Part shown: positions 24,074-26,529 of the stretch, piece after piece | Numbering within the stretch: the stretch's first letter is position 1 | Layout: each line of letters begins with the position of its first letter | Source of the DNA: Candidatus Saccharimonadota bacterium | GTDB taxonomy: Bacteria > Bacteroidota > Bacteroidia > Cytophagales > Amoebophilaceae | Direction: 5' to 3' | Assembly: GCF_936981045.1 (NCBI RefSeq) | Contig: NZ_OW441264.1 | Coordinates: 150,001-182,000 of the forward strand | Length of the DNA: 32,000 bases | Program-made: the position numbers and the translations under genes | The notes under the pieces: model-generated | Database searches by the model: none | The model's input: only the letters and a program-made list of their open reading frames with translations | Told to the model about the DNA's origin: nothing

Positions 24074-25606
24074 TTATTTAGCCTTGGTTAAGCTTGGCCT
24101 GAAAATTGGACAGTTTGCCTTGTTGATTAGGCTATGGTATTTTTTTGAGAGCATGCAAACTGCTGTCATCCAAACGATGCAAATAAACAAAAATATTACC
24201 ATTAAAAATGGCGCCAGTTGATTGGGCTGTGCAGAAGTGAAAATAGTATAAAAGATAACTTGTAAAATAGCCCCCGCAGATTTCCCTATTTTTCCACCTA
24301 ATATATCAACCGCTGCTTTTCCTTTTGTGCCCATTTCACAGTCTAAGGGAATGTAAACCATCTCTTTGGTTACATCAAAAAAACAATATTTAGTTCCCTT
24401 AGCTAATACGTTTTGTAGACCACCAATGGTTACAATAACAGCTAAAGTGGATATACCCATTATAGTCTCTGATAAAAAGTTGTAATGCGTGGCAATGATA
24501 AGCAGGAAAAAACAGCCTCCCACTATAAGTGTTGTAACAGGTGTAATCAGTGCTGCACCTAACCAACTTAGCTTTCGAATCACTACATTACCAAAACAAG
24601 AACAAGACAATGTACAAACGCCTGTCCAGAATAAGACCTTACCTTGGTAAGTAATAAAACTTGTAGGATCTTTCTTATAAAAAAGACTGGTTTCATAAAA
24701 CCAGAGGCCTTCTATTAAGTGTACAACCATAGAGTAAGAGATCATTAATACACAAATTAATGCAAGGTATTTAGATGTGGAAATCATTTTAAAACTTTTA
24801 TATAGTCCTAATTGTAATGTGGTAGCTGGCCTGGCTGGTACCCTTTGACTGTAGATAATATACTTTTCGATATACTTGTGTAAAAGTAGAATAAAGAGAC
24901 ATAAGGAGGTAATAACGATCATCAGCGTGGCTATTTTTGATGCTGCTTCCATTTTATAGCTATCTGTAAAGCGTAATAAAAAATGATCGGTATGCGAAAA
25001 GTATACTATGATAGTGCCGGAAATAAGTAGATTGGCTTGTCCAATCAAGTTGAAAAAGAAGTAAAACCGACCCGCTTCTTCTGTTGTAGTTATTTTATTG
25101 GCCAACTGCCAATATAACAGGGTAAAAACAATCATGGGCCACAGTTCACCTAGCATGTAGAAGAGTATTAATGTCCACTTACCCCACATGATAAAGAACC
25201 ATTTAAAATGAGGATAAAGCTTAATGTAAGCATCTACCCTACAAGGATCGGGATGTAATAGCGTTTGATAAGGAAACAAAAAAAAGCCGAATAGAATAAA
25301 AAAAAAGAGAAAAAAAAGTATAATGCCTCTAAAAATATTTTCTGTTGTGACCTGATTACATAAGATGGTATAGATCACTACAAATAAAATCCCTGCGGGC
25401 ATTTCAACAAATAGTTTAATAAAGCTCAATACTTCTGCTCCTATTAAGGTAACGACAAGACCATCTTTTATGCCACGGATTAAATTTTGATTCAACAAAA
25501 TAAGAAACATTAAGATGGCCATAGAAAAAAATTTTTGCAGCGCACTGCCCTTAATAGGCCAGTGCATAAGGTGCCATTTTTTTAGTAGGACGCTTATTTG
25601 TTTCAT
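24074..25606 (-). CDS. NTT/Tlc-type nucleotide (ATP/ADP) translocase
   Basis: 510 aa from ATG 25606 (the ORF opens at 25735). About 12 TM segments. Family hallmarks: WPIKGSALQKFFSMAILMFLILLNQNLIRGIKDGLVVT, LHPDP, MLGELWPMIVFTLLYWQLANKITTTEEAGRFYFFFNLIG and CFFDVTKEMVYIPLD. Confidence 0.88.
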   Translation of the reverse strand: MKQISVLLKKWHLMHWPIKGSALQKFFSMAILMFLILLNQNLIRGIKDGLVVTLIGAEVLSFIKLFVEMPAGILFVVIYTILCNQVTTENIFRGIILFFLFFFILFGFFLFPYQTLLHPDPCRVDAYIKLYPHFKWFFIMWGKWTLILFYMLGELWPMIVFTLLYWQLANKITTTEEAGRFYFFFNLIGQANLLISGTIIVYFSHTDHFLLRFTDSYKMEAASKIATLMIVITSLCLFILLLHKYIEKYIIYSQRVPARPATTLQLGLYKSFKMISTSKYLALICVLMISYSMVVHLIEGLWFYETSLFYKKDPTSFITYQGKVLFWTGVCTLSCSCFGNVVIRKLSWLGAALITPVTTLIVGGCFFLLIIATHYNFLSETIMGISTLAVIVTIGGLQNVLAKGTKYCFFDVTKEMVYIPLDCEMGTKGKAAVDILGGKIGKSAGAILQVIFYTIFTSAQPNQLAPFLMVIFLFICIVWMTAVCMLSKKYHSLINKANCPIFRPSLTKAK

Positions 25607-25728
25607 ATTGATTTTAAGTTTATTAAACGGGTATCCGTTCAGCCTTCTGGTCATACTACCCAAAAACAAGCAAAAAATAGCGTACAAATTCCTTTTATCA
25701 AAAAAAATAGGATACATCATTCTTAACC

Positions 25729-26529
25729 TTAGCATTTTCCCAGGAAAACCATTACAAGGCTGTGGGCAATAGAATAAGGAACGATTTGCAAAATGCGCAT
25801 GGTTAATCCATTAAAGATTGCAAAAATTTTTTTTTCAACTATAATGTTATGTTTTAATCGACCTATCCAAGTCATACGCACCTCTGAGCCACAATTTTGA
25901 GTGGCGATCAGATCAAATGGCATACTTAAGGCAGATACAGCTATACCCAACAACGCACTCACAACTATATTTGCGCCTATCCCACTTATATCTTTTGTAA
26001 ATTCGTAGGCCAGTATACATGCCGAGCCACCCAGTATGTTCCTTAAAAGAACGGGGGTTAAAATATCCATAACCTTTTCTTTTCGTTTCATTAAAGAACC
26101 TTTATTAGCGGCAATTTCTTTTGTTTCGCTGTATATGGTGACAACCGTTTCTACTATTCCAGCTAAAAAGCACTCCCAGATGACCAATAGCGTAAAATTG
26201 GTTATCGCACAATAGCCCGTAGAACAAAGGAAAAGCCATTGTGAACCCCCAAAGGCCAAAGCAGCTATAAACTGTCGAAGTGCATAAATATGTGCTCCGG
26301 AAAAAAACAATTTAAAATTTTTAGCACGTATACATCTTGTGACAATAGAGGAATATGATTCGCCTGTTTCTTGATAGACTACTTTTACAAATTGAGCAGG
26401 TGCAACTAGGTAAGCCACGATTACACAAGCTATACCATGTGCAAGTGGATCAAAAAAGAAGCGATATAGAAGTGTGTTATATTGCATAGCCATTAAGTGA
26501 TTTAGCTGAAAGCCACTTACTGAATCCAA
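25729..26529 (-). CDS. mitochondrial-carrier-family (MCF)-like membrane protein, divergent
   Basis: 266 aa from TTG 26529 (ATG alternative at 26493). Three tandem two-helix modules carry degenerate MCF signatures: VAPAQFVKVVYQ...FFSGAHIYALRQFIAALAF; TIYSETKEIAANKG...LLRNILGGSACILAYEF; SMPFDLIATQ...IFNGLTMRILQIVPYSIAHSLVMVF. Confidence 0.6.
   Translation of the reverse strand: MDSVSGFQLNHLMAMQYNTLLYRFFFDPLAHGIACVIVAYLVAPAQFVKVVYQETGESYSSIVTRCIRAKNFKLFFSGAHIYALRQFIAALAFGGSQWLFLCSTGYCAITNFTLLVIWECFLAGIVETVVTIYSETKEIAANKGSLMKRKEKVMDILTPVLLRNILGGSACILAYEFTKDISGIGANIVVSALLGIAVSALSMPFDLIATQNCGSEVRMTWIGRLKHNIIVEKKIFAIFNGLTMRILQIVPYSIAHSLVMVFLGKC

Follow-up and report, generated by a model that had tools for sequence, protein, structure and literature searches.

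Why would a bacterium encode a protein resembling a mitochondrial carrier directly ahead of a nucleotide translocase, and in whose membrane would such a protein work? The question is raised by a locus within 32,000 nucleotides of contig NZ_OW441264.1 (assembly GCF_936981045.1, positions 150,001 to 182,000), a stretch that we analyzed as a whole and refer to as the window. An earlier note, made from the sequence alone, described a mitochondrial carrier family (MCF) protein there, encoded on the same strand as a transporter of the NTT family, and both open reading frames (ORFs) are indeed present in the ORF list, on the minus strand. The carrier-like ORF encodes a real homologue with the mitochondrial-carrier fold, minimal in size (~250 aa) and strongly diverged, and its pattern of motifs is not chance. 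The two genes and the repeats of the carrier-like protein are laid out as follows.

24074..25606 (-): NTT/TLC nucleotide translocase coding sequence, 510 aa, its start set by the N termini of orthologues
25729..26493 (-): MCF-like ("mini mitochondrial carrier") coding sequence, 254 aa from the ATG at 26493 or 252 aa from the ATG at 26487; stop codon at 25729-25731
26212..26487 (-): repeat 1 (helix H1, short matrix helices, H2), with the motifs PAQFVKVVYQ and FFSG (FFRG in relatives)
25984..26211 (-): repeat 2 (H3-H4), ~76 aa, truncated, with two AlphaFold2 helices at 98-132 and 143-164 (252-aa numbering)
25732..25983 (-): repeat 3 (H5, matrix helices, H6), with the motifs PFDLIATQNCG and FNGLTMRILQ

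A minimal and divergent mitochondrial-carrier fold

The longest frame of the carrier-like gene, 25729-26529, encodes 266 aa from a TTG start in the ORF list and had been taken over in that form. The 24 intact homologous proteins (55-91% identity) are 251-254 aa long and begin with "M(A/T)MQ.N"; because these lengths and N termini match, we place the start at ATG 26493 or 26487, so that the frame stands and the TTG start does not.

In the Pfam search that the earlier note proposed, the whole protein matches PF00153 (Mito_carr) at E=1.7e-9 with 37.7 bits, above the curated cut-off of 22.3. Modules 1 and 3 are each significant alone (21.5 bits, E 2e-4, and 20.0 bits, E 5.8e-4, respectively), and the corresponding repeats are related to each other (hhalign E 1e-4). 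Module 2 alone has no Pfam match, and repeat 2 shows no significant similarity to repeats 1 and 3 in hhalign. Three homologous sequence repeats of ~100 residues, as expected of MCF members, are therefore not found, since repeat 2 fails; it is a repeat by position and helix pair only, and of the three tandem modules described before, the first and third are upheld and the second is not. Repeat 1 aligns with repeat 1 or 2 of Ggc1 and Aac3, and its PAQFVKVVYQ retains the canonical proline and lysine as well as the glutamine at P+9. Repeat 3 aligns with repeat 3 of Ggc1, Aac3, and the oxoglutarate carrier (OGC). Repeat 2 has a short loop, has neither a matrix helix nor a [FYW][KR]G motif, and carries the conserved motifs ETxxTIYSExKEIxxNKG and P-x-x-L-R-N.

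AlphaFold2 reached a pLDDT of 72 from the 24 close sequences alone and a pLDDT of 92 with a pTM of 0.86 from 41 diverse family members. Its six long helices are accompanied by short matrix helices, which repeats 1 and 3 have and repeat 2 lacks. In a Foldseek search of the PDB, the 9 best matches of the model are mitochondrial carriers without exception, namely UCP1, ADP/ATP carriers, and a Tetrahymena carrier; their query TM-scores (TMq) are 0.41-0.70 at 11-16% sequence identity, and after the ninth the match probability falls to 0.16. Among predicted viral structures (BFVD), the first 13 fold matches are all giant-virus or nudivirus carriers. The family profile finds the solved carriers Ggc1 (E 3.7e-9), Aac3 (3e-6), and OGC (5e-6), with an MTCH2 chimera among the weak PDB sequence matches. 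PF00153, the profile matches to solved carriers, and the predicted fold thus all agree with the homology claimed in the earlier note, and the structure prediction that it called for returns the six-helix MCF bundle, whose threefold pseudo-symmetry is judged from the helix layout of the model and from its fold matches. The outcome that the note named as a refutation, no module matching PF00153 significantly and a different fold, thus did not occur.

The same six-helix, threefold pseudo-symmetric bundle is shared by the eukaryotic SLC25 nucleotide carriers (the ADP/ATP carrier [AAC], Ggc1, and the ATP-Mg/Pi carrier SCaMC), and repeats 1 and 3 of the window protein keep the SLC25 proline kink, the glutamine brace position, and [FYW]xG. 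Unlike these carriers, the window protein is ~50 residues shorter than the canonical length, has no matrix helix in repeat 2, and retains the cytoplasmic network on H4 only. The giant-virus and nudivirus carriers are a further case of the MCF fold outside eukaryotic genomes, some of them equally short (231-282 aa); they differ in that the similarity is structural only (9-15% identity) and in having no NTT partner.

The gating motifs are degenerate on both sides of the bundle. The signature PX[DE]XX[KR] reads P-A-Q-F-V-K on H1, Y-S-E-T-K-E on H3, and P-F-D-L-I-A on H5, and the three-bridge matrix network typical of MCF members is reduced to Q..K / E..E / D..A, a pattern that would permit at most one of the three inter-helix bridges, D206-K49. 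The motifs quoted in the earlier note were correctly placed; in module 2, where E138 occupies the canonical base position, its "E..K" spacing was wrong by one residue, and the degenerate [FYW][KR]G pattern that it described is absent from module 2 and kept as [FYW]xG in repeats 1 and 3. The H1 glutamine at P+9 does not vary within the family. Instead of a cytoplasmic network of [FY][DE]XX[KR] motifs on H2, H4, and H6, we found the motif intact on H4 only, at the end of the helix (Y175-E-F-T-K179), with no charged pair at the network position on H2 and H6. Conserved polar residues within the membrane are E127/T128 (H3), R163/N164 (H4), and R245/Q248 (H6); R85/Q86 (H2) are conserved in Amoebophilaceae only. 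The arginines and lysines conserved within helices (K49, R85, R163, and R245) suggest an anionic substrate. By motif spacing, contact point I corresponds to R85 (the equivalent of AAC R79), contact point II to N164-I165, with R163 one residue ahead, and contact point III to Q248.

Pairing of the carrier-like gene with the NTT gene

The downstream neighbor had been identified as an NTT, and this identification is secure: PF03219 (TLC) matches it over profile positions 7-491 of 491 (E=1e-134, 450 bits), and solved NTT structures are hit at E 2.5e-75 (9j3n) and E 1e-72 (9j3j). Its score against TIGR00769, 373.5 bits, lies slightly below the cut-off of 387.2. In Amoebophilus, the orthologue Aasi_0069 carries the annotation of a putative ATP/ADP translocase (PMC8831229). 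NTT paralogues differ in their substrates, and ATP/ADP exchange by the NTT described here is a prediction.

In all six Amoebophilaceae loci compared (6/6), the carrier-like gene lies directly upstream of the NTT gene on the same strand. This order and strand are kept, as in an operon, despite differing flanks.

Window: flank MurC, with IS5 inserted between; spacer 122 bp
L001: flank FtsA; spacer 18 bp
L002: flank FtsA-FtsZ, with two tandem carrier paralogues, 53% identical; spacer 63 bp
L003: flank contractile-injection tape-measure protein; spacer 65 bp
L004: flank MurC; spacer 152 bp
L006 (Cardinium of D. farinae): flank Ank/MutS; spacer 214 bp

At seven of seven loci outside the Amoebophilaceae (Rickettsiales and the sister clade), no NTT gene is adjacent. 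The fixed pairing within Amoebophilaceae is apparently a new and testable element of this system: in the literature we found no description of the NTT pairing, of the truncated middle repeat, or of a functional test of the family. As to expression, Aasi_0068 and Aasi_0070 are not listed in the published Amoebophilus count tables. The sequence around and between the two genes contains the following elements.

26669..26700 (-): promoter-like element GTTG-N20-TATATTTG, ~175 nt upstream of the carrier start, from a sigma-70 scan and a TAnnTTTG search
26517..26544 (-): conserved 5' leader block ACACTTAGTGCTGCTTTGGATTCAGTAA, 27/28 nt identical between the window and L006
25607..25728 (-): spacer separating the NTT gene from the carrier-like gene, 122 bp
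24026..24069 (no strand assigned): hairpin with a perfect 19-bp stem (24026-24044 / 24051-24069) and a 6-nt loop, 4 nt past the NTT stop codon

The spacer measures 122 bp because orthologue N termini place the NTT start at 25606, and neither a terminator-like site nor a TAnnTTTG motif was found in it. The spacing of the promoter-like element is of the Bacteroidota -33/-7 promoter type. This element is unique in the window, lies upstream of the carrier-like gene only and not of the NTT gene, and is ~88% identical in L006 at an equal distance from the start codon. This arrangement gives good support to our inference that one promoter, upstream of the carrier-like gene, drives transcription of both that gene and the NTT gene. 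The earlier note had likewise seen one transcription unit here, an impression supported by the terminator-free spacer, by the promoter-like element ahead of the carrier-like gene only, and by the spacer of just 18 bp in L001.

The ACACTTAGTGCTGCTTTGGATTCAGTAA block is embedded in a leader that is poorly conserved between the window and L006, and it matches no Rfam family; it overlaps the TTG taken as the start by the ORF lister. The hairpin beyond the NTT gene folds at a dG of -24.4 kcal/mol (z = -5.9; 0/200 shuffles fold equally well), has no U-run after it on the mRNA strand, and is probably a 3'-end stem-loop or a bidirectional terminator. The earlier note was right that a hairpin is present, with a stem of 19 rather than 18 bp and a gap of 4 nt rather than 6 bp. 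We rejected the idea that the hairpin is conserved along with the two genes: none of 14 related loci contains its sequence, and a comparable stem follows the NTT gene in L002 only. Rfam searches of the leader, spacer, and hairpin returned only sub-threshold noise.

Several of the related loci have peculiarities of their own. The 214-bp spacer of L006 (6760-6973) folds as a long imperfect palindrome (-61 kcal/mol) with inverted ends of ~20 nt and looks like a small repeat element inserted into the presumed operon. Tandem carrier duplicates occur in L002, an Amoebophilaceae-like metagenome contig (6001-6756 and 7259-8011, both upstream of the NTT gene), and in L010, from Ca. Xenolissoclinum pacificiensis (4235-4969 and 4980-5732). 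In L003, from a divergent Cardinium metagenome-assembled genome (MAG), the immediate divergent neighbor of the carrier-like gene encodes a 1388-aa contractile-injection-system tape-measure protein (1527-5693, minus strand; PF19268), a neighborhood that is probably coincidental, though relevant to the question of secretion.

Relatives, origin, and genomic surroundings

The closest homologues of the window protein, 87-91% identical, are hypothetical proteins of Cardinium endosymbionts, and remoter ones (55-66%) come from an Amoebophilaceae MAG, the divergent Cardinium MAG, and metagenome contigs. An exhaustive HMMER search of 1.84 billion cluster representatives with a Cardinium-clade profile returned 46 proteins at E<=0.001, 36 of them at E<=1e-10, nearly all 240-275 aa long; typical carriers of ~300 aa, which match in multiple stretches, match the family profile weakly (E 1e-8 to 1e-4). 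PF00153 is matched at E<=0.001 by 36 of 41 family members. Among the matches found, the family is confined to Amoebophilaceae, Rickettsiales, and metagenome contigs. With distant family members scanned against one genome per GTDB species, the Rickettsiales copies are those of a MAG, strain Sesoko1, Ca. Xenolissoclinum pacificiensis (the two tandem paralogues), and Ca. Xenohaliotis californiensis; they are 34-57% identical to distant family members and ~30% identical to the window protein. The family profile also matches a 3717-aa "mucin-16-like" protein, P0052, of the lungfish Protopterus annectens (E 9e-17) in 10 stretches that all fall on profile positions 36-73; this match may be a repeat artefact or a repeatedly amplified symbiont-derived fragment.

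Proteins of this kind have been reported before. Among their core-genome candidates for horizontal gene transfer (HGT), Brown et al. (2018) included cPpe_01095, a "mitochondrial carrier protein" of Cardinium, with 66-67% identity between strains, a best outside match in Neorickettsia at ~33%, and SCaMC-1 as the best eukaryotic BLAST match (PMC6232779). Judged by that description alone, this protein and its orthologues belong to the same family as the window gene; the text on cPpe_01095 in that paper says nothing of NTT pairing, a truncated repeat, fold, or function (PMC6232779). Carriers in Legionella, along with two MCF proteins of Neorickettsia sennetsu, had been reported by Dolezal et al. 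(2012) (PMC3252375); the Neorickettsia proteins are tied to the present family by the BLAST statement of Brown et al. (PMC6232779), and further bacterial Mito_carr proteins are on record (PMC5621508, PMC4378268). The earlier note named Legionella LncP as the rare bacterial example, which holds as a precedent and omits Neorickettsia, the further Mito_carr proteins, and the 2018 Cardinium report. The Neorickettsia and Rickettsiales homologues resemble the window protein in being short, Mito_carr-positive, and carried by obligate intracellular bacteria, and they differ from it in having no adjacent NTT and in their identity of ~30%. The window gene is an additional member of these already reported Cardinium/Rickettsiales carrier-like proteins.

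The carrier-like gene is under purifying selection. Compared with L006, the window gene has a ratio of nonsynonymous to synonymous substitution rates (dN/dS) of 0.145, with dS, at 0.51, short of saturation; the ratio is 0.10-0.20 between the window and other loci and rises to 0.36 among other pairs. Over the same genome pairs, pairwise identity is 45-87% for the carrier-like protein versus 52-80% for the NTT. The earlier note had named, as a second possible refutation, that the ORF is a decaying fragment, which the dN/dS of 0.145 contradicts. A recent capture of a host carrier now in decay, or a chance ORF, would be in keeping with the degenerate motifs and with the many insertion-sequence (IS) and intron fragments in the window; we nonetheless consider either practically out of the question. 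The 24 orthologues are intact (251-254 aa, 55-91% identity), dN/dS is 0.10-0.20, no close eukaryotic relative appears among the 1.84 billion representatives, and the family is monophyletic in 100/100 bootstraps of a neighbor-joining tree. We accordingly rejected both a pseudogene or chance ORF and a recent HGT from the host eukaryote.

That tree (Poisson distances, 249 columns) is crude, with a small outgroup of four canonical-like carriers, against which the short family is monophyletic. Within the family, the Amoebophilaceae clade is itself monophyletic (100/100) with a metagenome protein as its sister (97/100), and it falls within a broader radiation of which named Rickettsiales are part. 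The tree thus argues against a recent transfer from host to Cardinium and for exchange among intracellular bacteria. The labels "eukaryote-type" and "horizontally acquired eukaryotic carrier" in the earlier note go further than these results allow, as only 46 relatives, nearly all of ~250 aa, were found among 1.84 billion representatives and no recent eukaryotic donor is visible. The most economical source of the fold is still a eukaryotic one, ancient and later reduced, because all named bearers are obligate intracellular bacteria. A bolder proposal is that the family is an old carrier-fold lineage maintained by bacteria, with a Rickettsiales-like root, passed to Amoebophilaceae, native in the bacterial inner membrane, forming a "reverse-mitochondrion" pair with the NTT, and the nearest prokaryotic relative of mitochondrial carriers; we regard this proposal in its entirety as very doubtful.

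From its sequence, the bacterium that carries the window is identified as a Cardinium-like member of the Amoebophilaceae, an endosymbiont of the kind found in insects and mites. The window contains the housekeeping genes gltX, psd, cdsA, polA, lpxB, ruvX, pth, L25, rpsA, murC, and nusA, among which lies mobile debris (IS256, IS6, and IS5 transposases along with pieces of group II intron reverse transcriptase), a mix typical of this lineage. Other features of the window are listed here.

27006-27869 (+): IS5-family transposase ORF (NF033581, 237 bits), between murC (28434-29870) and the carrier-like gene
23077-23814 (+): 245-aa ORF converging on the NTT gene, matching HD_4 at 23.1 bits (cut-off 27.2) and the RelA/SpoT N terminus, both sub-threshold
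22498-22726 (+), 13098-13172 (+), and 14141-14215 (-): four tRNA genes, Cys-GCA and Leu-CAA right after rpsA, and Arg-TCG and Asp-GTC
19761-20249: IS6/IS240 DDE fragment
17229-18467: IS256/Mutator transposase
9889-11266 (-) and 19136-19642 (-): group II intron reverse transcriptase/maturase in overlapping broken ORFs, with a third reverse-transcriptase fragment elsewhere

Since murC is the immediate divergent neighbor of the carrier-like gene in L004, the window looks like the L004 arrangement into which an IS5 was inserted without disrupting the promoter-like element at 26669-26700. The ORF at 23077-23814 may be a spoT-like gene remnant. The short ORFs listed at 22323-22647 are spurious because they overlap the tRNA-Cys and tRNA-Leu genes.

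Site of action and its significance

We favor, at about an even chance, a carrier that resides in the symbiont's own inner membrane and is co-expressed with the NTT. It would be inserted with its short N and C termini toward the periplasm and its K/R-rich loops toward the cytoplasm, which would be the orientation of carriers relative to the mitochondrial matrix. Such a protein would move an anionic, probably nucleotide-related solute that an ATP/ADP exchanger alone cannot balance, and its candidate roles beside the NTT would include net nucleotide uptake, release of phosphate, or import of a phosphorylated cofactor. Its gating would be weak, more like that of a uniporter or facilitator than of a strict exchanger, because of three matrix salt bridges only D206-K49 is left, and of three cytoplasmic motifs likewise only one.

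Several properties of the family lean toward the symbiont's own membrane as the site of action. The grand average of hydropathy (GRAVY) is 0.47-0.89 in the family, -0.2 to 0.38 in five canonical-like carriers, and 0.78 in the NTT; the mean hydropathy of transmembrane segments is 1.5-1.95, 0.87-1.57, and 2.06, respectively. Lysines and arginines number 16 on the matrix-equivalent side and 3 on the other (family mean, 15 versus 2), and a bias of at least 3:1 is seen in 41/41 family members. The outward-facing loops of the AlphaFold2 model are 5-9 residues long. To hydrophobicity and charge bias are added an evolutionary pace like that of housekeeping genes and the nature of the described export route: the secretion system described for the Amoebophilaceae lineage is a type VI system, T6SS-iv, whose substrates are not established (PMC8831229). 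The leaning toward an anionic or nucleotide-related substrate comes from the arginines and lysines within helices, from nucleotide carriers as the best sequence matches, and from SCaMC-1 as the best eukaryotic hit.

Other observations count against a resident transporter. The contact points match none of the three published classes (nucleotide, keto-acid, and amino-acid) cleanly unless the register is shifted by one, and with both gating networks degenerate, canonical alternating-access transport is uncertain. The hydropathy comparison uses five canonical-like sequences only and is suggestive rather than a test. A positive-inside bias is general in mitochondrial carriers and therefore does not separate a resident from an exported protein. 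The only characterized bacterial MCF protein, LncP, is a secreted effector that acts in host mitochondria (PMC3252375). Family members in Rickettsiales and the sister clade have no NTT beside them, so the function of the family is not strictly NTT-dependent, and a weak sigma-70-like match within the spacer (25701-25674) makes an internal promoter possible. For every family member, finally, transport and localization are predictions from sequence and model.

Export in the manner of LncP is a tentative and, in our judgment, unlikely alternative: the protein would insert into a membrane of the host, the inner mitochondrial one or some other, and would leak ATP or another metabolite into the cytosol for the co-expressed NTT. 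Under this explanation the co-expression would make physiological sense, the weak gating networks would suit a leak or uniport, and genes of the ankyrin-repeat effector type adjoin the carrier-like gene in L006 and L015. Cardinium lives free in the host cytosol. Amoebophilus does so as well (PMC8831229), and this cytosolic life would give both direct access to host mitochondria. The Legionella protein (Lpw_31961 / Llo1924) is a Dot/Icm-secreted MCF protein that assembles in the mitochondrial inner membrane and transports ATP unidirectionally (PMC3252375), and it has in common with the window protein the MCF fold, an intracellular bacterium as its bearer, and a link to adenine nucleotide traffic. 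LncP closely resembles eukaryotic carriers, being aligned in that study with the ADP/ATP carrier (PMC3252375), whereas the window protein, ~250 aa long, has a repeat 2 that is truncated, lies far from typical carriers (E 1e-8 to 1e-4; ~50 residues shorter), is more hydrophobic, and belongs to a lineage in which only T6SS-iv is described. Delivery of a six-helix membrane protein by T6SS-iv has no known route, and it is uncertain that TIM22 would recognize a truncated repeat 2 and very short loops. The family is more hydrophobic than canonical-like carriers and near the resident NTT, and it evolves as slowly as the NTT, at a pace typical of housekeeping transporters and not of effectors. Secreted transmembrane effectors tend to lower hydrophobicity.

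A carrier fold that does not transport seems more improbable still. By analogy with the divergent SLC25 proteins MTCH2 and SLC25A46, which have lost the signature motifs, the protein could serve the NTT or other envelope proteins as a partner in the membrane, as an assembly factor, or in the manner of an insertase, or it could handle lipids. The loss of two of three matrix salt bridges and two of three cytoplasmic motifs would suit such a role, as would a repeat 2 that is truncated and unrecognizable by sequence, the MTCH2 chimera among the weak PDB matches, and the close, conserved linkage to one partner gene, which fits an accessory subunit. The charged and polar residues within the helices (E127/T128, R163/N164, and R245/Q248), however, form the pattern of a substrate cavity, and the AlphaFold2 model superposes best on transport-competent carriers. 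The Rickettsiales relatives without an adjacent NTT argue that the protein is not a dedicated NTT subunit, and NTTs work alone when expressed in E. coli. Roles other than these take up the remaining probability.

The question posed by the carrier-like protein is directly testable; assays of NTTs, and of the Amoebophilus S-adenosylmethionine transporter, have been made before by expressing them in E. coli. Mitochondrial carriers are regarded as a eukaryotic invention, and the single bacterial carrier investigated so far functions only once it has been exported to host mitochondria. If the window protein were exported instead of resident, the LncP strategy would extend to a second bacterial phylum with different secretion machinery. 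If it is a carrier of the symbiont's own membrane, hard-wired to an ATP/ADP translocase, it would be a first, and it would supply a missing part for models of nucleotide and phosphate balance in symbionts that live as energy parasites, among them Cardinium, which is widespread and manipulates the reproduction of arthropods.

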